Source: an uncultured Candidatus Saccharibacteria bacterium (GTDB lineage: Bacteria > Patescibacteriota > Saccharimonadia > Saccharimonadales > UBA4665). Taken from it: a DNA stretch of 64,000 nucleotides. Below the pieces are notes generated by a model that ran no database searches, was not told where the DNA came from, and saw only the letters and a program-made list of their open reading frames with translations. Within the stretch, counting starts at the first letter, position 1; each line of letters begins with the position of its first letter. The stretch is from contig CAYUNX010000001.1 in assembly GCA_964446255.1 (NCBI GenBank), positions 9,729 to 73,728 on the forward strand. Reading direction: 5' to 3'. The translations under genes and the position numbers were made by a program. Positions 13,387 to 46,650 of the stretch are shown one piece after another.

Positions 13387-14187
13387 CTACAGCTCGATAC
13401 TAACTGGACAGTGGTCAGAGCCAAGTACGTCGGGGTGAATCTGTGGGTTTTTGACTTTATCTGCGATGCCCTTGCTCGCAAGCCAGTAGTCGATGCGCCA
13501 GCCAAGGTTACGAGTACGGGCGTTTGCCCAGTGCGTCCACCAACTGTACGCCTCGGTCTTGTCTGGGAAGGCACTCCGGAAGGTGTCGACAAAGCCAGCG
13601 TCAACGAATGCCTGGAACCCTGCCCGTTCTTCGTCGGTAAAGCCGTGTTTGCCGATGTTTTGCTTGGGGTTGGCGAGGTCGATTTCACGGTGGGCGACAT
13701 TGAGGTCGCCGCAGAATAACACCGGTTTAGATTTCTCTAGTTGCATCATGTAAGCGAGGAAGGCTTGATCCCAATGTTTGTGCCGTAGTTCGAGGCGGCT
13801 CAGGTCGCCTTTGCTATTGGGCGTGTAGACGGTGACGACCCAAAAGTCAGCGAACTCGGCGGCGATGACGCGACCTTCGGCATTGGCATCGCCGTAACTG
13901 TCACCTGTGACATTGAACTGCTCGATAATCTCTGCCGGGAAGCCGTCGATGTAACGGAGGGCTGGAGTTTTGCTGAAGATTGCTGTGCCGCTGTAACCCT
14001 TTTTGACCGCACTAAAAAAGTGCTCGGTGTACTGGGGCATGTCGAGCTCTACCTGGCCACGTTGGGCTTTGGTCTCTTGCAGACACAAAATGTCGGGGTC
14101 ATGTTCGGCGACAAACGTCTGAAAAACACCCTTGTTTAACACCGCCCGCAGGCCGTTCACATTCCAACTGTATAAACGCATGGGCAT
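13387..14187 (-). CDS. xth: Exodeoxyribonuclease III
   Basis: N-terminal MRLYSWNVNGLRA and C-terminal GSDHCPV. Length (266 aa) is typical of the Xth/APE1 family. Confidence 0.85.
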   Translation of the reverse strand: MPMRLYSWNVNGLRAVLNKGVFQTFVAEHDPDILCLQETKAQRGQVELDMPQYTEHFFSAVKKGYSGTAIFSKTPALRYIDGFPAEIIEQFNVTGDSYGDANAEGRVIAAEFADFWVVTVYTPNSKGDLSRLELRHKHWDQAFLAYMMQLEKSKPVLFCGDLNVAHREIDLANPKQNIGKHGFTDEERAGFQAFVDAGFVDTFRSAFPDKTEAYSWWTHWANARTRNLGWRIDYWLASKGIADKVKNPQIHPDVLGSDHCPVSIEL

Positions 14188-14203
14188 AGTATACTATGGT
14201 CTA

Positions 14204-14623
14204 ATGAAAGCACGTGATTTTCGTGGTGACTATGTATCTCAGCGATTTATCGTTCGGATCATTGTGCTACTAGTCGTGATACTCGTTGGGTCTTTAAGTT
14301 ATTTGGCGGTCGTAAACTACTCGGCCGCTTCGTCAGCGCGTGGTACGCGCGATGTGTTGGCGCGGGTGCGGGTGGCTGATGGGGTGAGTGAGGACGAGTT
14401 GTTTATCGACCAGACTCGTCTCGAAAAACGCGTGACAAGAAGTGGTGTTTTCTCGAGTAAAGCTGAACTTTATGTTAAGAAGTTAGATGCGGGTAATGGC
14501 AACATGTTAACTTTTAATGGGTGTGTTTTAGTTGGTACGTATAAGCCAGTGCAATGTGTGGCTGACGATGGTAAGACGTACTGGGTGACGATTACTGAAG
14601 AAACTGACACTACTTCTTCTTGA
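14204..14623 (+). CDS. Hypothetical membrane-anchored protein
   Basis: ORF 14132..14623, likely start at ATG 14204 (MKARDF). One TM helix (IVRIIVLLVVILVGSLSYLAVV). Confidence 0.5.
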   Translation: MKARDFRGDYVSQRFIVRIIVLLVVILVGSLSYLAVVNYSAASSARGTRDVLARVRVADGVSEDELFIDQTRLEKRVTRSGVFSSKAELYVKKLDAGNGNMLTFNGCVLVGTYKPVQCVADDGKTYWVTITEETDTTSS

Positions 14624-14643
14624 TACTAACCAGGCTATAATTT

Positions 14644-15153
14644 GCAGTTCCCGAACTGCAGGCGGCTTATATTATTCCAACGCCTTAATCTGTGGTTCCC
14701 GCACCACCGGCGGCTTACTTTTTGGTTCGCCAAAAAGTAAGATAAAAAACTCGGCACGCTTTCACCCTCTTGGCGATCTGTTGTTTCTGATTACAACGGC
14801 CACACACTAAGCTACGTTACCACTTCGCTACGCATGTGTCCTGAAGTTGTAACAGACAACAACAGCTCAGCCAGGACGCCTCCAGAATGCCATTTAGCTA
14901 CAAACCCCCTTTGTCATTCCTGCGCAGGCAGGAATCTATATATTAAAAAAGGCACGAAGTGACATAGACAAGATTACTATGCGGTGGTGGCTGAGATTAT
15001 TCCTAAATCCTAAATCCTAAATCTTTAATCAATAATTAGCCCCTTTATCATTCTGAGCGGAATGGAATGAAGTCGAAGAATCTCCCATGAAGCATTCCAA
15101 ATTCTAGAATCCAGAATCTAGATTCAAAACCGATAATTGGCAATCGATAATCG
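14644..15153. repeat. Composite structured intergenic repeat, copy 1
   Basis: The modules, in order:
- Hairpins 14644-14659 and 14691-14707.
- Perfect 12-bp hairpin 14714-14741.
- Long irregular hairpin 14750-14891.
- GTCATTC..GAATCT units at 14913-14937 and 15047-15083.
- Heptamer arrays at 15002-15037 and 15090-15153.
Shares long near-identical blocks with 20357-20813 and 46187-46649. Confidence 0.8.
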
Positions 15154-15157
15154 TCTC

Positions 15158-16204
15158 TTACAAATATGCTTCGAGGCCGGGGCGTTCGATGTAGCTTGCA
15201 GCAAATGCCGTGTCAGTACAGATGCGGAGTTCGTCTTCGCTGAGGATGTTGTGCGAGCGCAGTAGCTGGTACTGGTGGCGCAGTCGCCCGCCCTCGATGG
15301 TTTCTGGCCAATCGGTGTTGATGCAAAACTTGACATCGTTCTCGATGAGCGTGCGGATTATCTGCCCCATCTCGTCGAGACCACTCACGGCCTTGGTGAC
15401 GATGTTCGACATTGGGCAAACTTCGAGTACGGTACCACGTGCGGCGAGCTCGTGCATGAGCTTTTTGTCATAGGCCGCCAAAATGCCATGGCCGATACGA
15501 GTTGGGTTGAGATAGCGTAATGCGTCCCAAAAATCGTCAGTTTCTCGCACTTCCCCGGTGTGTACGGTTACACCAAGGCCGGCGGCGCGCGCTTGATTGA
15601 AGGCGGCTTCGTAATCTTTCATCTTAAAATTGGGATCCGCTGGGCCAGCAACATCGATGCCAACGACGCCACGTTTGCGGTATTTGATAGCTTTCTCAAT
15701 TATAGAGGTGTTGCGCGCAACGTCGTATTCGCGGGCGATACAAAAGATTAGTCCGGCTGACAAGTTGGGGTGTTCGAGCAGGGCTTGTTCCATGCCGCGC
15801 AGCATCGCCATGATAAGGTGGTCGAGGTCGACCTCAGCGTTAAAATTGTGCTTCATGGGGTTAGTGCGGAGCTCGATAAGCTCAATACCGTTGCGGTATG
15901 CCCCGCTCATCGTGTTGTAGACGGCTGCCTCGACAGCGTGCGTGCCGCTACTGAGTTTGTCGAGTATGGGGTGATAGATTTTGCGGAAGTAATCGTTGAG
16001 CGCCATGGGACGGTCGGCGGCGAGCGTGATGTACTCTTTGAATTCGCGGTATTCGCTTTTGGGCAACTTGACGCCGAGCTTATGAGCTATTTGCCAGAGT
16101 ACGGCCGGTTCTATCGAAGTACCGAGATGCGCATGTAGCTCCGCGAGTGGGTAGTCGGGATAATCTGAGGGGGCTTGGAGTAGAGAGGAAACAATGTCTT
16201 TCAT
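15158..16204 (-). CDS. add: Adenosine deaminase
   Basis: Metal-binding ELHAHLGTS (HxH), HTGE and CINTDWP motifs in the canonical order. Confidence 0.8.
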   Translation of the reverse strand: MKDIVSSLLQAPSDYPDYPLAELHAHLGTSIEPAVLWQIAHKLGVKLPKSEYREFKEYITLAADRPMALNDYFRKIYHPILDKLSSGTHAVEAAVYNTMSGAYRNGIELIELRTNPMKHNFNAEVDLDHLIMAMLRGMEQALLEHPNLSAGLIFCIAREYDVARNTSIIEKAIKYRKRGVVGIDVAGPADPNFKMKDYEAAFNQARAAGLGVTVHTGEVRETDDFWDALRYLNPTRIGHGILAAYDKKLMHELAARGTVLEVCPMSNIVTKAVSGLDEMGQIIRTLIENDVKFCINTDWPETIEGGRLRHQYQLLRSHNILSEDELRICTDTAFAASYIERPGLEAYL

Positions 16205-16397
16205 AGACTAATTATAGGTGATGCATGGGTGTGATGGCAAACTGACGACGTCAATTTCTATAATTATTATCAGTAATTTGCCGCGTGCCATCTGTAGCAA
16301 AAAGTGTCAAACGCTTTCAATTTAAGTTTTTGCTGGGGTGTGGTTGCGATGAGACTAATTGCATGGGCAAATTGCTTGCGCTATTAAAATACGGTGG

Positions 16398-16403
16398 TAT
16401 TAT
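16398..16403 (+). promoter_or_regulatory. Candidate -10 box (TATTAT, overlapping TATAAT), leaderless start
   Basis: TATTAT-AATTGTA-ATG, with the ATG at 16411. Confidence 0.35.
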
Positions 16404-16410
16404 AATTGTA

Positions 16411-17076
16411 ATGGACAAAATCTTGGCGCTATTATCTCATACGGCTATTGCACATCACGTACGGAAGCACACCGTACTGCTCTGTCAAGGTGAGGTGCCT
16501 CAGGAAGTGCATATCGTGCGGTCAGGCTGCGTCAAAGTCTATAGGTTGAATAGTTCCGGCGATGAGCATATTGCGGGCTTTAAAACGGCCGGTGACATCT
16601 TTCCCGAATGTTGGGCGTTTGGCCACACTGCCAACACGATGTATTACTACGAGACGACTGAAGACACAGAGATAGCAACCGTGCTCCGCGAAGATTTTAT
16701 GGAAATGCTCGACAAAAACCCTGATGTACGAACAAAGCTGTTCGACTATATGGTCAAAAACTACACCGGTCTTATGGTACAAGTTTCGGCGCTCGAGCAG
16801 TCTCACGCCGTCGACAAACTCCTCATGATGCTCTATTACCTCATGATTCGTCATAGTGTCGAGAAAAAACCAGGTGAATTTTGGCTGAGCATGAAACTCC
16901 GGCATGCCACACTTGCCGGCCTGACCGGGTTAACACGTGAAACGGTTTCGACCGAGCTCGGTAAACTCAAGAAAAAAGGTGTCGTGCATTACTCACTACG
17001 TCGGTTTGTCATACACAGACAGGCGCTGCGGGAAATGATTGGCGAAGCAGCCTTTGCTGAGATTCAGCTGGATTGA
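16411..17076 (+). CDS. Crp/Fnr-family transcriptional regulator
   Basis: cNMP-binding-like beta-roll region followed by the C-terminal HTH TRETVSTELGKLKKKGVV. The ORF-track N-terminal extension was dropped. Confidence 0.75.
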   Translation: MDKILALLSHTAIAHHVRKHTVLLCQGEVPQEVHIVRSGCVKVYRLNSSGDEHIAGFKTAGDIFPECWAFGHTANTMYYYETTEDTEIATVLREDFMEMLDKNPDVRTKLFDYMVKNYTGLMVQVSALEQSHAVDKLLMMLYYLMIRHSVEKKPGEFWLSMKLRHATLAGLTGLTRETVSTELGKLKKKGVVHYSLRRFVIHRQALREMIGEAAFAEIQLD

Positions 17077-17254
17077 GGTTTTGTAGGCATAACCGTAACA
17101 GGTGTTTGCGTGAAATAATACACAAGGTTTTTGATAATATTTTCGTAGCAAATAGTGTTGACGGTGCGTAAAGTATTGTTTGGAAGCGTTTCCTTTCTTG
17201 GAGTTATCACTTAACAGTCACAATTGAGTGGCTAGAGATTTTGGGAGATTGTAT

Positions 17255-18127
17255 ATGGAACGCACACTAACTGTCGAAAAAAAATATATCTCGATTCAAA
17301 CAGTGGTTTCTACTTTTGTGGGTATGATGATGGCGTTACCGTTTGCCTTTGCAGCAGGAGCTCAACCAAGTGCATCCGCAGCAGATCAATCTTCATCCGC
17401 ACAAGTTAGCCTTGCCGACGCATTTAACCAAGGCTATCAAGCGAGCGCGTCAAGCACCAAAACAGCTGCCAACGGTACAACACAATGCTCTGAAGCGTCT
17501 GTGTCTACGGGTGGTGCAGTTATGGGCGAAAGCTCTGGCGGCGGTTCAGGTTGGGGCTCACAGGCAATGTCATGGGGCGGTGGAAGTGGCAGTGGTGGTG
17601 GAGGCGGAGGCAGTAAACTTGCTTCAAAACCTGCTTCACCTGTCGATAAGCTCGCATCGATGTTCCACACATATAATTCTTACACATCGATGATCTACAA
17701 TAGCTCAAGTGTTGCCAATACCAATAGCAACAATGTCGTTGGCTCAAATAACACAACGTCAACCGATCTAAAGATCGAAGATTCAAAGAACGTGACGGTT
17801 GGCGTCAGTAACGATTCGACGTCATCGCTCATCGCAACTGATGACAGCTTCAACAAGGATTCGTACAACACGAAGACTGAGACTGAGATCATCAACGATT
17901 CGTACAATACGACTGAGACGAAGACCGAGACCAAGATAGAGGACTCATACAACACTGAGACTAAAACTGAGACTGAAACCAAGATTGAAGACTCATACAA
18001 TTCAGAGACTGAAAATAAGGTTGAGGACTCGTACAATACCGAAAACAAGACCGAAGACTCAAACAACACATCTACCGTTACTAGCGAGACTAATCTCGAA
18101 GTCGGTGATGTCGAGGTAGAACTTTAG
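17255..18127 (+). CDS. Secreted Ser/Asn/Thr/Glu-rich repeat protein
   Basis: GGGAG lies 7 nt upstream of ATG 17255. Signal-peptide-like MMMALPFAFAAGAQP, a Gly tract, and imperfect tandem (K)IEDSYNTETKTETE repeats (about 17866-18070). Confidence 0.65.
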   Translation: MERTLTVEKKYISIQTVVSTFVGMMMALPFAFAAGAQPSASAADQSSSAQVSLADAFNQGYQASASSTKTAANGTTQCSEASVSTGGAVMGESSGGGSGWGSQAMSWGGGSGSGGGGGGSKLASKPASPVDKLASMFHTYNSYTSMIYNSSSVANTNSNNVVGSNNTTSTDLKIEDSKNVTVGVSNDSTSSLIATDDSFNKDSYNTKTETEIINDSYNTTETKTETKIEDSYNTETKTETETKIEDSYNSETENKVEDSYNTENKTEDSNNTSTVTSETNLEVGDVEVEL

Positions 18128-18180
18128 GAGTTAAACGTCACAAATAGACATTACATACACGTCTAAACTCAAAAGCACGA

Positions 18181-18214
18181 GCAGCCCCGTTCTCAGGAAC
18201 GCGGGCTGCTTTGA
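18181..18214 (+). terminator. Candidate intrinsic terminator
   Basis: GCAGCCCCG-loop-CGCGGGCTGC followed by TTTGATT. Lies downstream of the repeat-protein gene. Confidence 0.45.
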
Positions 18215-18329
18215 TTGCGGCGAAAGTCATTTACTCGAAACATCCCTGCACTGCACCTCTGCTACGAAAGATTTAAGTGTAAGCAACGGACATTGTGCTG
18301 TTGCCCTATCGCAGAGAAAATAGAACTGG

Positions 18330-18335
18330 TATGCT
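18330..18335 (+). promoter_or_regulatory. Candidate -10 box (TATGCT), leaderless start
   Basis: TATGCT-AGGTGC-ATG, with the ATG at 18342. Confidence 0.35.
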
Positions 18336-18341
18336 AGGTGC

Positions 18342-19049
18342 ATGACATATAAACGAATTCTTCTCAAACTATCAGGTGAACAATTAGCCGGCGAACATGA
18401 GTTCGGCGTCGACCCCAAAATAGCCAAGTATTTGGCACAAGAGATTAAACAAGTCGTTGATACGGGTGTGCAGATTGCCATCGTTGTCGGCGGTGGGAAC
18501 ATGGTGCGAGGTGCCGAGGTGGCTGGTCATGGCATTCGCCGGGTGACTGGCGACCAAATGGGAATGTTGAGTGGGCTTATCAATGCGATGGCTCTCACCG
18601 ACATCTTTGAACACGAAGGTTTGGCGACACGCTGTCTCAGTATCGTTTACGCCGAGCAACTTGCCGAACCATACTCGTACCGTTTAGCCGAAAAACACCT
18701 GCAGGGTGGCCGTGTGCTCATCATCGCTGGTGGGTTGGCGAGGCCATACTTTACGCACGACACCGCTGCTGTCAGTTTCGGACTTGAGCTTGACTGTGAA
18801 GTGGTGATTAAAGCCTCTAAGGTCGATGGTGTCTATGATCGCGATCCTGTAAAGTACCCAGACGCCACCCGACTTGAACATATGAGCTATGCTGATGCTG
18901 TAGGCAATGTTGATGTTATGGTGATGGACAAAGCGGCACTCGGTCTTGCACTTGAGCAAAAGCAACCACTTGTCGTGTTTGATGCGATGCAGCCAGGCAA
19001 TCTCGCCCGTCTCGTCGAAGGCCAATCTGTTGGTACGACTATAGGTTAG
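18342..19049 (+). CDS. pyrH: UMP kinase
   Basis: ILLKLSGE and VVGGGN motifs. 235 aa, amino-acid-kinase fold pattern. Confidence 0.9.
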   Translation: MTYKRILLKLSGEQLAGEHEFGVDPKIAKYLAQEIKQVVDTGVQIAIVVGGGNMVRGAEVAGHGIRRVTGDQMGMLSGLINAMALTDIFEHEGLATRCLSIVYAEQLAEPYSYRLAEKHLQGGRVLIIAGGLARPYFTHDTAAVSFGLELDCEVVIKASKVDGVYDRDPVKYPDATRLEHMSYADAVGNVDVMVMDKAALGLALEQKQPLVVFDAMQPGNLARLVEGQSVGTTIG

Positions 19050-19076
19050 TCAGTATTCGTTATAAATACTTACGTA

Positions 19077-19102
19077 GAAAGCCTCCCTTGACGGAGGCTT
19101 TC
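19077..19102. terminator. Bidirectional intrinsic terminator between convergent genes
   Basis: GAAAGCCTCC-CTTGAC-GGAGGCTTTC followed by a T-rich run. Lies between the pyrH stop (19049) and the minus-strand ORF stop (19114). Confidence 0.6.
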
Positions 19103-19113
19103 TCTTTCTCTAA

Positions 19114-19323
19114 CTAGGCGAATCTGGTTCTCTTACTGTGTGCCAGATAGCGGAAGTCTTGTCGCATAGATTCGCTGTTTTCAAACAACTCTAGCTCAAG
19201 ATCTGCAGACGAGGCGCTTGCTGTACGTTCGCACGGTTCGTTATTTGCAGAAAGGTATTGTTGAAAATGTACTTTTGGGTGCTTTTGGAGTTTGTTTGTT
19301 AGCTCTGAATATGTTCGTGACAT
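19114..19323 (-). CDS. Small hypothetical protein (69 aa)
   Basis: ATG 19323 is preceded by a strong TAAGGAGGG. No homology recognised. Confidence 0.4.
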   Translation of the reverse strand: MSRTYSELTNKLQKHPKVHFQQYLSANNEPCERTASASSADLELELFENSESMRQDFRYLAHSKRTRFA

Positions 19324-19449
19324 ATTGCCCTCCTTAATTAGCTTACAAAACAAAGCCTAGCATTCTCCGTAGCACCCCTTCCCTTTTTAGTGCTGTGAAT
19401 GAAACGATAGCTTACAATCACTAGCTTAGCTCACTTTTGCACAATAGTA

Positions 19450-19465
19450 TGTGTGTTACATCACC
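19450..19465. promoter_or_regulatory. Candidate Crp/Fnr-type operator
   Basis: TGTGT-GTTACA-TCACC compared with the CRP-type consensus TGTGA-N6-TCACA. 13/16 identical to the site at 19616-19631. Confidence 0.3.
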
Positions 19466-19615
19466 GGTCATTTAGTACAAAATCAAACGTAGTTCACTCG
19501 ATAATACAGAGACGGGCTCTGTAGGTGCTCTGAGTTAAGGTTTGATGTAGTCGACGGCGAATCTATGCATGAAAACAGATATAAGGTCACAACTCTGTAA
19601 TGCCAGTAAATGTTT

Positions 19616-19631
19616 TGTGCGCTACATCACG
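19616..19631. promoter_or_regulatory. Candidate Crp/Fnr-type operator at class-II position
   Basis: TGTGC-GCTACA-TCACG. The centre lies about 41.5 nt upstream of the predicted leaderless TSS/ATG at 19665. Confidence 0.35.
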
Positions 19632-19651
19632 TAACGAAAAATATATAAGAG

Positions 19652-19657
19652 TATAAT
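19652..19657 (+). promoter_or_regulatory. Candidate -10 box (TATAAT), leaderless start
   Basis: TATAAT-TAAGTGT-ATG, with the ATG at 19665. Confidence 0.45.
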
Positions 19658-19664
19658 TAAGTGT

Positions 19665-20342
19665 ATGATGACAGACCCACAGGCTGGTATGCCGAACGCT
19701 CAGACGACAGATAGAAGTATCATTGCGCACTTTAGCGACGGAAAACTCATGCAGTTTACAGACGGAGAAACTGTCATTAATGATTTTGACGAACCTAAAG
19801 GTGTGTACCTAATAAAATCAGGTTTTGTTAAGGCGTACTCCGTGTCTCAGGCTGGCCATAACAACTTGTTGTTTATCCATCAAGTCGGCGAATTTATACC
19901 GTTACCCTGGGCATTGGACGGTGCGCATGTCACTGGGCTATCCTATGAAGCTATCGCCGACGTGACAGTTCTGAGAGTTTCAAAAGACAATCTTCGTATA
20001 GCTATGGGGCACGATGCTTGGTTGTCTCAGGAAATCTTAAAACAAGCAGTCGAAGTGATCGCCGTCTACACTCAGAGGATACAAACTTTAGAGTTTCGGT
20101 CAGCGCGTGGGCGAATCATATCTGAGATTTTGAATCTTGCGCAACGTTTTGGTGAGAAAAACGACAAAGAGGTCACAATCAATGCGCCCATTACACACCA
20201 AGACTTGGCTGATTCTATCAATATGAACCGGGAGATGGCTAGCAGGGCTTTGGGATTACTTGTTGATGAAGGCTTAATTGGTCAGACAGATCACCACATT
20301 AGTATTTTAGATTTACCTAGGCTTCAAAAAGCACTCAGCTAA
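19665..20342 (+). CDS. Crp/Fnr-family transcriptional regulator (second paralogue)
   Basis: cNMP-binding-like N-terminal domain and HTH NREMASRALGLLVDEGLI. Confidence 0.75.
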   Translation: MMTDPQAGMPNAQTTDRSIIAHFSDGKLMQFTDGETVINDFDEPKGVYLIKSGFVKAYSVSQAGHNNLLFIHQVGEFIPLPWALDGAHVTGLSYEAIADVTVLRVSKDNLRIAMGHDAWLSQEILKQAVEVIAVYTQRIQTLEFRSARGRIISEILNLAQRFGEKNDKEVTINAPITHQDLADSINMNREMASRALGLLVDEGLIGQTDHHISILDLPRLQKALS

Positions 20343-20356
20343 TCTTAGCTCCCATC

Positions 20357-20813
20357 TGTCATTCTGAGCGTAACAAAATGAAGCTGAAGAATCTCTTCTA
20401 AGTCTTTTTCGTAGCAGTTCCCGAACTGCAGTCGGCCACCTTTTTGTACCGACAAAAAGCTGGGCAAAAAACTCGGCACGCTTCCACCCTCTTGGTGATC
20501 TGTTGTTGTCGCTTACAACGGCCACACACTAAGCTTCGCTTTGCTCAGACTACGCATGTGTCCTTATGTTGTAACAGACAACAACATCTCAGCCAGGACG
20601 CCTCCAGAGTGCCATGAGCTGCAAAAACCCGGCACTGTCATTCCGGACTTGATCCGGAATCTAGTTATTAAAGTCGCGTAGCGACAAAGCTACGGGGCCC
20701 ATTCGTAAATCGATAATCAATAATCGATAATCTACTGCGTTTAAACATTCAAGATTCTAAAATCCAGAATCTAGATTCCAACCCGATAATCGGTAATCTA
20801 TAATCGAAAATCG
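20357..20813. repeat. Composite structured intergenic repeat, copy 2
   Basis: Contains a GTCATTCTGAG unit, hairpin 20414-20429, 12-bp hairpin 20436-20463 and long hairpin 20472-20613. Also an ATTCCGGA..TCCGGAAT unit and heptamer arrays at 20706-20733 and 20751-20813. Confidence 0.8.
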
Positions 20814-20821
20814 TTTATCTA

Positions 20822-34718: not shown

Positions 34719-34799
34719 ATTCAATTGTAATTGTTTTTAATACGTTACAAAAAACTCCCGTCTGTGGACGGGAGTTTTTGACGTGTAAACGACGTTCGC

Positions 34800-35120
34800 T
34801 TAGTAGCGGCGATCGTTGTAGCCGCCGCGGTCACCGCCGCCGCCACCGAAGTCACGGCGTGGTGCGCGTGGTTCCTGTGGACGAGCTTCGTTGACAACGA
34901 TTGTGCGGCCTTGCACTTCGCTGTTGTTCAGCTTGTTGATAGCAGCTTTAGCTGCTTCATCATCGTCGAACTCGACAAAACCAAAGCCTTTTGAGCGGTT
35001 GGTCTCGCGGTCGATGATGACCTTAGCTGATGCTACTTGCCCGAACTCTGCAAAGAGCTCTTCTAGGGCGCGGTCGTCGACGCTCCATGGGAGCGATCCG
35101 ACGAAAAGTTTGGTTGCCAT
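34800..35120 (-). CDS. RRM-type RNA-binding protein with Gly/Arg-rich tail
   Basis: RNP2 LFVGSL, RNP1 KGFGFVEF. C-terminal tail RDFGGGGGDRGGY. Confidence 0.85.
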   Translation of the reverse strand: MATKLFVGSLPWSVDDRALEELFAEFGQVASAKVIIDRETNRSKGFGFVEFDDDEAAKAAINKLNNSEVQGRTIVVNEARPQEPRAPRRDFGGGGGDRGGYNDRRY

Positions 35121-35702
35121 GTTCTGGTAACTTCCTTCTTCTCGGTAGTCTACTGAGGTAATTGCCGAGAATCCGGAATTAGCTGCGCCTCTTCAAAAAC
35201 CAATAACTTATTAAACTTTCTAGAACCTGAATGTCCGAATTGCTTCGGCCACCCCTTTTTCGCAGCCTTCTAGTACCCGCATAGTAGCACAGCTACATCT
35301 ATAAAGCAATGATACTTTTCAAATTTAGGGTCGTTGTAAAAAGGTTTTTCAGTGATGTATTTCACAGCGCATCCTCAGCTAAGTAGCTTATGCTAGTAGT
35401 CATGAGCGTTTGACCAATTTGCCGAAACGCCTGACGTAAAAACAAACTAATCGTAGAAAGGGGTTTACACCATGAAACGATTATCACTAAAAAGATTAAA
35501 TGTACTCTCGCAACCGATGCGCGTCTCCGAGATTACTAGCATCGATACTGAAGAATTTGAAGACAAGTGGCTACTTGAGGCCGAGAAGCTTAAAACAAAG
35601 CGAATCCGCGCCTGGCGTCAGCAACTCGCGTCATAAAGTTGTCCTAAGGCATAAAGAGCGTCAGATTACTGGCGCTCTTTTAATTGCAAAGTCTAACATC
35701 TT

Positions 35703-46186: not shown

Positions 46187-46649
46187 CAAGTTCCCGAACT
46201 GCGGTCGGCTCTTTTTCCCTTCATCGTTTTTAAGTGTGGTTCCCGCACCACAGGCGGCTTACTTTTTGGTTCGCCAAAAAGTAAGATAAAAAACTCGGCA
46301 CGCTTCCACCCTCTTGGTGATCTGTTGTTGCTGATTACAACGGCCACACACTAAGCTCCACATTCGTTACGCTACGCATGTGTCCTGAAGTTGTAACAGA
46401 CAACAACATTTCAGCCAGGATGGTTCTAGAGTGCCATGAGCTACAATTCCGTCTCTCCGTCATTCCGGACTTGATCCGGAATCTAGTTATAAAAGTCGTG
46501 TAGCGACGAAGCTACAGGGCTCATTCGTTAATCTTTAATCAATAATCAGACCCTCCGCTATTCCATGCGGAATATAGTGGAGTCGAAGAATCACTTTTAA
46601 GATTTTCCAGATTCCAATTCGTAAATCGTTAATCTTTAATCGTAATTCG
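46187..46649. repeat. Composite structured intergenic repeat, copy 3
   Basis: Same module order as copy 1: two TTCCCG-loop hairpins, a 12-bp hairpin CTTACTTTTTGG-TTCG-CCAAAAAGTAAG, a long hairpin, an ATTCCGGA..TCCGGAAT unit and heptamer arrays. Ends 2 nt before the purL stop. Confidence 0.8.
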
Positions 46650-46650
46650 A

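Follow-up and report, generated by a model that had tools for sequence, protein, structure and literature searches.

A previously undescribed structured intergenic repeat in Saccharibacteria, a tentative counterpart of the known interspersed structured repeats

Why should a compact bacterial genome carry the same long, hairpin-forming sequence in one intergenic region after another? The question is raised by a stretch of 64,000 nucleotides from an uncultured Candidatus Saccharibacteria bacterium (contig CAYUNX010000001.1), to which we refer at its full length as the window. An initial annotation of this 64-kb stretch had pointed to three cores of about 250 nt, each built from several hairpins, and had suggested either a non-coding RNA (ncRNA) family or an element resembling miniature inverted-repeat transposable elements (MITEs) or BIMEs. 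We call the conserved core of this intergenic repeat X. The explanation that we favour, with confidence a little short of even, is that X is a new counterpart of the interspersed structured repeats (BIME/REP-REPIN, ERIC, NIME) and acts as a folded single-stranded nucleic acid, either RNA or single-stranded DNA (ssDNA). X belongs to no named family; it is the same kind of element as the known interspersed structured repeats, without sequence relationship to them. We place it with this kind because it exists as many intergenic, non-coding copies that form hairpins, is modular and specific to a lineage, is syntenic yet dynamic, exceeds neutral DNA in conservation and has no adjacent enzyme gene.

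Exactly three full copies of X are present in the window, each on the + strand, as found by reading of the sequence, three-way alignment and pattern searches. A covariance model built here places the core of copy A at 14691-14901 (237.8 bits), that of copy B at 20413-20622 (240.5 bits) and that of copy C at 46235-46444 (247.9 bits), all on the + strand. The 24-nt stretch CTCGGCACGCTTCCACCCTCTTGG from the 5' arm of the long hairpin has three matches in the window at no more than one mismatch (0.00 expected), and the motif GTTCCCGNAC of the first small hairpin occurs five times against an expectation of 0.25. The element measures approximately 210-260 bases and is always ordered as a small hairpin (P1), a 12-bp hairpin (P2), an A-tract and an irregular hairpin of about 140 nt (P3). 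The P1 hairpins have the loop TTCCCG(A/C) on one of two stem types, GCAGTT/AACTGC and TGTGGT/ACCACA. In copy A, P1 occupies 14692-14707, P2 14714-14741, the A-tract 14744-14750 and P3 14753-14891, with an apical loop of type A (ACGTTACCACTTCG) at 14813-14831; the predicted RNA fold of this copy has a free energy of -83.5 kcal/mol (z = -5.5). Copy B has a P1 of the GCAG type at 20414-20429, a P2 of the CCACC type at 20436-20463, the A-tract at 20466-20472 and P3 at 20475-20613, with a type B loop (TCGCTTTGCTCAGA) at 20535-20553. The corresponding parts of copy C are P1 at 46236-46251, P2 at 46258-46285, the A-tract at 46288-46294 and P3 at 46297-46435, with a type C loop (CCACATTCGTTACG) at 46357-46375. 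All of these parts are on the + strand.

Two of the copies are preceded by additional P1 units on the same strand. Upstream of copy A, positions 14644-14667 hold a GCAG-type P1 hairpin (GCAGTTCCCGAACTGC) and AGGCGGCT, a remnant of the 5' end of a second element, and upstream of copy C a P1-type fragment at 46187-46210 (CAAGTTCCCGAACTGC GGTCGGCT) is followed by a decayed 5' strand of P2. When these fragments are taken together with the cores, the positions at which the three copies had been reported are reproduced, and the three-part build (one or two TTCCCG hairpins, a 12-bp hairpin and an irregular hairpin of about 140 nt) is present throughout. The description of the copies as near-identical holds for the P3 arms, which are 91-92% identical between window copies. 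It does not hold for P1, P2 and the apical loop, and pairwise identity across the core is 79-90%. Two features went unmentioned in the initial annotation. One is a fourth copy, with its core immediately outside the left end of the window and only its tail (1-129, + strand) inside; the orthologous locus L005 has a core at this place. The other is that each core is part of a composite of roughly 480-530 bp. X occurs about once per 16 kb of the window, from which we extrapolate that a genome of about 1 Mb would hold roughly 40-60 copies. The four repeat arrays occupy approximately 1.7 kb of the 64 kb.

To judge whether these hairpins are preserved as such, pairs of a fixed structure were counted on an alignment of 12 copies of X. 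P1, with its two stem types, shows both-sided (compensatory) changes in 2 of 5 pairs, and P2 shows them in 7 of 12, with several pair types per position. Overall, 97.6% of cells are paired; shuffles reach 93.2%, and sliding the 3' partners gives 34-49%. None of the 35 pairs of P3 has changed on both sides, and the departures there are single broken pairs. Despite this absence of compensatory pairs, P3 is clearly constrained as a helix: minor-allele cells make up 1.6% of its paired columns versus 15.1% of its internal loops and 20.9% of the apical loop, a difference between stem and loop that is significant on cells (Fisher p = 4e-23) and on columns (5e-7). The helical segments of the core are 98.4% conserved, as opposed to 87-94% at second codon positions of neighbouring genes. 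Since the pairing of P1 and P2 is kept through compensatory changes, and the helices of P3 are kept while its internal loops drift, X probably acts as a folded single strand and not as a coding sequence or a signal read only in double-stranded DNA. We also considered a pseudoknot between the P1 loop (CCGC/CCGA) and a downstream GCGG/TCGG. The changes are compensatory in 12 of the 13 P1 units listed, yet they are fully linked to the stem types and the gap between stem and partner is only 2 nt, and this pairing is not counted as evidence.

How old are the copies? Our comparisons treat the window as part of the metagenome-assembled genome (MAG) CAYUUR01 (GCA_964448075.1), with CAYZFT01 as its sister MAG, on the ground that one sequencing run contains both a protein identical to the SHMT (serine hydroxymethyltransferase) of CAYUUR01 and a contig identical to the window. 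When one genome per species was scanned with exact patterns, copies came from these two Candidatus Saccharibacteria MAGs only, and a metagenome scan added two more true copies, L008 and L009 (a further match, L010, was rejected as a chance match in GC-rich DNA). CAYUUR01 has at least seven copies, namely the three of the window, the one at the left edge, a pair in L004 and a single copy in L019, and CAYZFT01 has at least six (L001, L002, L003, L005, L006 and L011). The nearest relatives of the ClpC protein of the window and of the SHMT of L001 are Saccharimonadales proteins. These relatives, together with the matching MAGs, overturned a cyanobacterial origin that the heptamer repeats had at first suggested. 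A scan of about 130 kb of the next relatives (ClpC 67% and SHMT 89-94% identical) with the covariance model yielded no copy. X is confined to a narrow Saccharimonadales lineage.

Within this lineage, four orthologous genes of the two MAGs are 87-94% identical at second codon positions and 33-45% identical at four-fold degenerate sites, which are therefore saturated. X has nevertheless been kept in both genomes at all four comparable sites: copy B and L011, adjoining ClpC; copy C and L006, adjoining a diacylglycerol-kinase gene; the left edge of the window and L005, adjoining the open reading frame (ORF) at 130-1206; and L019 and L001, after the SHMT gene. Because X persists at shared sites despite saturated synonymous sites, its copies are not the product of recent duplication, and the covariation of P1 and P2 goes beyond what such duplication would leave. 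The P3 arms are 84-92% identical in every pair of copies, within or between genomes. Persistence of this kind requires that the copies be under purifying selection or be renewed continually from a template that is itself under selection, as neutral copies would have been erased. The sites are not static. The SHMT site carries different subtypes and different surroundings in the two genomes, and L017, whose SHMT is 94% identical to that of CAYZFT01, has only small modules and no core there. When filled and empty SHMT sites are compared, the intergenic content has been swapped wholesale, and no insertion boundary or duplication is readable. A separate observation concerns assembly: five contigs from the MAGs and from Logan (L004, L005, L007, L011 and L019) end in or just after an X core, so that short-read assemblies of these genomes are broken by the repeat family.

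The proposal that X lacks coding capacity and a transposase, and matches no known class, is borne out by the searches. Tests of 28 window ORFs, with all those that flank X among them, revealed no transposase, integrase or reverse transcriptase, and no transposase or RAYT was seen in the approximately 257 kb of window and related loci examined. A small protein read from the ATG frame of P3 was rejected, as a 1-nt insertion in L001, L006 and L019 and an 11-nt deletion in L002 shift the frame. An ORF across X on the - strand was rejected as well, since it is open (at least 35 aa) in only 6 of 10 full copies and leaves the conserved 3' arm outside. The X pseudo-ORF used as a query of the protein collection gave no match and no further copies. 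X is demonstrably non-coding. With Rfam release 15 (4227 models), the window at gathering score contains two tRNAs only, the core is unmatched even at E ≤ 10 and seven related loci are unmatched at E ≤ 0.1. Plasmids, phages and viral contigs gave no match to X, and 5,426 complete Escherichia coli genomes gave none to the core (blastn, word size 11). X is new to the databases searched and is a previously undescribed repeat. Several specific identities were tried and set aside. An integron attC site is disfavoured because TTACAAC/GTTGTAA departs from the RYYYAAC...GTTRRRY consensus and lies mid-stem, with copies 6 and 26 kb apart and no integrase. Retrons, 6S RNA, a tRNA-like T-arm and self-cleaving ribozymes were dismissed for want of consensus features, partner genes or an Rfam match.

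The internal variation of X is that of an assembly of modules. The apical loop exists in three types and ranges in length from 16 nt down to 3 nt (in L019); types B (TCGCT..GCTCAGA) and C (CCAC....GTTACG) are common to both genomes, and type A is complete in copy A only. The types of P1, P2 and loop are combined independently of one another from copy to copy. Incomplete or chimeric forms include the extra P1 fragments of copies A and C, L004b (with a decayed 5' arm) and L008b. In L008, the P1-P2 leader of X is fused to a different repeat of about 290 nt, family Y, and this leader can thus be regarded as a shared module. Family Y is itself a second structured repeat, with several hairpins and the core TGCGGAACTCGCTTCGCTCAGACAGTCCTCC, in the same genomes as X. 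It is represented at 3215-3500 of L002 (- strand), 715-1040 of L008 (- strand), 100-300 of L004 (- strand) and 11400-11640 of L019 (+ strand), does not occur in the window and has no Rfam match.

These properties bear on the two classes that were offered at the outset. The comparison with BIMEs stands, given the mosaic arrays, reassorting modules, truncated or chimeric copies and turnover of subtypes. The comparison with a simple, recently amplified MITE is not supported, as the shared sites are old and neither a target-site duplication nor, in the 257 kb examined, a partner transposase was seen. X may also be an ncRNA family, with compensatory changes in P1 and P2 and none in P3. The BIME-like option is better supported than the ncRNA option.

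Which strand folds, and for what purpose? Every copy is found on the strand whose GC skew is positive. This is true of 10 of 10 contigs with repeats masked, by at least 2 standard deviations in 8 of them, and of 7 of 7 sites with significant local skew (two-sided p ~0.016). GC skew in the window has the same sign in genes of both orientations, which identifies it as the replication type and not the coding type. (As a side observation, 37 of the 54 large window ORFs are on the C-rich, or -, side, so that the gene-strand bias runs, at least locally, counter to the usual one.) Of 9 independent sites, 7 have a convergent gene downstream and 5 a co-oriented gene upstream. The - strand gives the more stable P3 in each of 12 copies, with a difference of 1.6-13 kcal/mol. 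The A-tract 5' of P3 shows little or no variation in the 11 copies that span this region, and when viewed on the - strand it becomes, in every one of these 11, a tract of U4-6 located 3 nt past the base of P3.

Our favoured explanation would give X a cellular role that is most likely exerted in cis, at the ends of transcription units. P3 together with the U-tract on the - strand might serve as an intrinsic terminator or as a hairpin that protects the 3' end, a proposal suggested by the U-tract that follows P3 on this strand in every copy and by the neighbouring gene that is transcribed into X at 7 of 9 sites. We hold this terminator detail, which is read from sequence features, with lower confidence than the assignment of X to its class. 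The copies would probably be maintained and spread either by recombination or gene conversion between them or by a trans-acting single-strand enzyme (HUH/RAYT-type) encoded outside the DNA examined. Upkeep of either sort would explain why the arms of P3 are conserved in sequence without compensatory change, and why the copies are oriented along the replication strand.

Some observations weigh against this explanation. On the - strand, P1 and P2 lie beyond the U-tract, and termination leaves their conserved pairing unexplained. Two of the 9 sites (L008 and L009) have no convergent gene. P3 is situated 200-260 nt from stop codons and forms a hairpin far longer than the usual terminator, consensus terminators are not enriched in the window, and a plain terminator would not require 98% sequence conservation of a 140-nt rod. 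With regard to spread, the absence of a transposase or RAYT applies only to the 257 kb examined, and neither a target-site duplication nor a clean boundary between filled and empty sites is definable. Finally, the + strand is favoured by wobble pairs (two invariant U.G in P3 and two G.U in P2) and by the terminator-like hairpin, resembling the neisserial dRS3 repeat, that follows copies A and B.

These + strand features belong to a different account of X, which we consider unlikely. Copies might be stand-alone small RNA (sRNA) genes, transcribed from the + strand by their own promoter and running from P1 through P2 and P3 to the dRS3-like hairpin (about 270-290 nt), whose products act in trans, for example as a protein-binding scaffold with paralogue-specific loops. 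Beyond the wobble pairs and the 3' hairpin, such genes would accommodate the compensatory changes of P1 and P2, the conserved stems and variable loops of P3, the sharing of loop types B and C by both genomes and a conservation of X that exceeds second codon positions of neighbouring genes. They would also be served by a T-rich box resembling TAnnnT that lies 5' of P1 in most copies. However, this box ends 0-4 nt before P1, so that a transcript started from it as a -10-like element would omit the 5' strand of P1; no -35 element accompanies it, our promoter scan called none, and we have rejected it as a + strand promoter. The copies in CAYZFT01 lack the 3' hairpin, and the apical loop, which shrinks to 3 nt in L019, appears dispensable. 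No target complementary to the loops is present in the 76 kb of this genome examined. In addition, P3 folds better on the - strand, and the estimated 40-60 copies per genome of about 1 Mb, together with the truncated and chimeric copies, would be unusual for sRNA genes.

The strict co-orientation of X with the G-rich strand, which is the lagging-strand template, could instead reflect mobility. In this account, to which we assign only a minor probability, X would be a non-autonomous ssDNA mobile element served in trans by an HUH/Y1 enzyme (RAYT- or IS200/IS605-like), with P1-P3 on the lagging-strand template forming the structures for recognition and cleavage and with P3 as a REPIN-like doublet. 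The arms of P3 are a 73% inverted repeat, each contains a small GTTGT..ACAAC palindrome, and the unit TGTTGTTGnnnnTTACAAC occurs once per arm in mutually inverted orientation, with no singlets elsewhere in the window. Both arms are conserved in sequence without compensatory change, as has been proposed for REPINs (PMC3116915). P1, with its constant loop and variable stem, resembles a nicking-site hairpin, and the lineage-specific distribution, site turnover and truncated or chimeric copies would all be expected of such an element. Yet a single P3 arm gains no stability over its shuffles (z of roughly -0.1 to -0.4), which weakens the 'clover' fold proposed for REPINs to the point that we have rejected it for P3. 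No Y1/HUH gene is found among the Pfam-annotated genes of the window and related loci, and neither an excision footprint nor a target motif was identified. The retention of four of four shared sites at saturated synonymous divergence likewise speaks of stability and not of activity.

The core does not stand alone, and its surroundings introduce two further alternatives. X is part of a composite that fills the whole intergenic region (479-534 bp in the window), whose modules follow one another in fixed order up to the stop codon of the gene that comes next. Heptad arrays, (NNNAATC)n, and hairpins of 20-32 bp with the form ATTCY..RGAAT are found, within the window, only in the four intergenic regions that bear X. 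The heptads are contiguous in runs of 3-6 (for example GATAATC AATAATC GATAATC) and adjoin the stop codons of convergent genes. A near-palindromic block, CATTCAAGATTCTAGAATCCAGAATCTAGATTC, accompanies these arrays (1-129, 14892-15157, 20614-20821 and 46436-46650). Small hairpins with the form GTCATTCC..GGAATC also have a longer variant, ATTCTGAGCG..GAAGAAT. Outside the window, related heptads are seen in L001, L003 and L006 and at the X-free site of L017. The outer ends of the composite carry no inverted repeat, and P1 and P2 lie outside the inverted repeat of P3.

The individual arrays, all on the + strand, vary on this plan. The tail of copy A (14902-15157) extends to the stop codon of a convergent adenosine deaminase gene and includes a dRS3-like hairpin (14916-14935), heptads (14996-15037, 15091-15125 and 15132-15152) and a ATTCTGAGCG..GAAGAAT module (15040-15084). 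Copy B has a ATTCTGAGCG..GAAGAAT hairpin upstream (20351-20395) and a tail (20623-20821) that reaches the stop codon of the convergent ClpC gene by way of a dRS3-like hairpin (20640-20660), a GTAGC hairpin and heptads (20698-20732, 20744-20778 and 20785-20812). The tail of copy C (46445-46650) is bounded by the stop codon of purL, a convergent gene, and comprises a dRS3-like hairpin (46462-46482, within 46446-46482), a GTAGC hairpin, heptads (46520-46547 and 46614-46648) and a module at 46550-46594. What remains of the fourth copy contains a ATTCTGAGTG..GAAGAAT module (7-51) and heptads (58-78 and 99-119). The dRS3-like hairpin at 14916-14935, ATTCCTGCGCAGGCAGGAAT, agrees with 10 of the 12 fixed positions of the neisserial consensus ATTCCCN8GGGAAT. 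Such hairpins lie 3' of all three cores and 5' only of copy B (and of L003 and L006). We also noticed that a weak Rfam match to Francisella FtrB corresponds to the dRS3-like hairpin. Together, the fit to dRS3 and the FtrB match indicate that a small inverted repeat recurs in Neisseria, Francisella and this Saccharibacterium.

In the neisserial NIME arrays, 20-bp dRS3 inverted repeats flank repeat units of 19-214 bp, and the arrays are syntenic between strains with variable content; the 2007 description stated that they were not seen outside Neisseria (PMC1797815). The arrays around X likewise alternate near-consensus inverted repeats of the 20-bp class (ATTCCTGCGCAGGCAGGAAT) with units of 50-200 bp, and are syntenic with changing content. 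They differ in belonging to another phylum and in containing one highly conserved structured unit in place of more than 100 loosely defined RS families. Moreover, only copy B is flanked on both sides, and heptad arrays are absent from NIME.

This likeness is one attraction of a double-stranded DNA account, in which an array of sites for chromosome organisation or recombination binds nucleoid proteins, a site-specific recombinase or an RHH-type heptad binder through its heptads and its dRS3-like and P3 inverted repeats, and promotes exchange of neighbouring genes as proposed for NIME. NIME arrays too are syntenic but dynamic (PMC1797815), the dRS3-like hairpins match 10 of 12 fixed positions, and module order and strand polarity are fixed. 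Compared with more distant relatives, the window has extra genes exactly at X sites. In the relatives L012 and L013 (67% ClpC identity), the genes for ClpC, an amino-acid kinase and an exo/endonuclease-phosphatase are adjacent. At 13387-20821 of the window, ORF163, adenosine deaminase, two Crp-type regulators and ORF299 are present in addition, at the exact sites of copies A and B. No recombinase is encoded nearby, and the within-genome compensatory changes in P1 and P2 point to single-strand hairpins and not to dimer sites. We regard this account as quite improbable.

The dRS3 repeat is also the integration site of a neisserial prophage, which uses a phage-encoded transposase/recombinase (PMC1797815), and the resemblance of the flanking hairpins to it could recommend X as a guide-type RNA of a mobile-element nuclease or recombinase (similar to omega RNA, bridge RNA or seekRNA), with the variable loops as guides and the present copies as orphans. 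An invariant scaffold whose variation is concentrated in three internal loops and the apical loop would suit this purpose. We find it very hard to credit nonetheless, as no TnpB, IscB or IS110 gene adjoins any of about 15 copies, no Rfam model matches (HEARO-type models included) and the loops lack complementary targets in 76 kb. A version of this idea founded on a variable loop of exactly 14 nt was rejected outright, because loop length is 3-16 nt and the three loop types recur, with B and C common to both genomes.

If X is a new counterpart of the interspersed structured repeats, as we tentatively prefer, how closely does it approach the named ones? ERIC (IRU) elements are multi-copy, non-coding, intergenic imperfect palindromes of about 127 bp, conserved across species and genera above the level of neutral sites, without an adjacent transposase and with a debated function. 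X is likewise a long imperfect intergenic palindrome in many copies, non-coding, conserved between species beyond neutral sites and with no adjacent transposase. However, it is larger, asymmetric (P1 and P2 are on one side only), strand-polar and embedded in arrays of heptads and dRS3-like hairpins, and the blastn search of the 5,426 E. coli genomes with the core revealed no sequence similarity to ERIC. Like Correia elements (CREE) among the MITEs, whose inverted-repeat ends fold as RNA hairpins, X is short, non-coding, multi-copy and often near gene ends, and its P3 arms form an inverted repeat with a predicted hairpin fold. In contrast to them, no target-site duplication was seen for X, it has no known cognate transposase, and its copies are ancient and common to species, not recently amplified. 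Retron msr-msd regions and the single-strand origins (sso) of rolling-circle plasmids also consist of small hairpins followed by a long irregular hairpin and have an orientation-specific, single-stranded function. X shares this plan, but it has no nearby reverse transcriptase or Rep gene and is extrapolated to dozens of chromosomal copies, and, as far as can be read by eye in the flanks, retron-style a1/a2 end pairing is not conserved across its copies. REPINs are inverted doublets of REP that form hairpins in ssDNA or mRNA, and their arms are thought to be conserved because RAYT recognises both (PMC3116915). With the REP/BIME-REPIN group, X has in common extragenic palindromic hairpins, an inverted doublet, conservation of both arms, lineage specificity and long vertical persistence (PMC3116915). 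The differences are those of size and detail: REP sequences are about 20-40 nt and REPINs about 100 nt and symmetric, as opposed to 210-260 nt with two extra hairpins in X, whose arm palindromes are weak, for which no RAYT was seen in the DNA examined and in which no GTAG-type 5' tetranucleotide was identified.

The genes that border X are housekeeping genes, coding for adenosine deaminase, Crp-type regulators, ClpC, PurL, SHMT, enolase and two-component systems; the window also encodes a sortase and enzymes of nucleotide metabolism. Elsewhere in the window, a convergent intergenic stretch of 984 bp (34719-35702) attracted our attention. It contains an ORF for a 106-aa glycine-rich, RRM-type RNA-binding protein (34800-35120, - strand) and a block (35350-35635) that is 86% identical to L006, a value above that of neighbouring coding DNA. 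The block has no significant Rfam match and may be either a 54-aa ORF (35472-35636, + strand) or a conserved non-coding element.

Saccharibacteria and other candidate phyla radiation (CPR) genomes are very small and are expected to contain little non-coding DNA. X is unusual in that its helices are conserved above second codon positions, across saturated synonymous divergence and with an orientation fixed to the replication strand. It is thus a clean case in which to ask whether repeats of the ERIC, REP and NIME types are selfish or serve the cell, in a setting where drift should remove DNA that is useless. Furthermore, mosaic arrays of the dRS3 type, once thought to be exclusive to Neisseria, are closely mirrored in a distant phylum. 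A bolder interpretation, which we judge improbable on present evidence, is that X is a gene family or an ssDNA-active family of a new structured nucleic acid of about 230-290 nt, held at dozens of fixed sites under selection as strong as that on second codon positions of proteins, with an unidentified protein partner and with loops for copy-specific recognition. If this were true, X would constitute a new RNA-protein or ssDNA-protein system and not a passive repeat.

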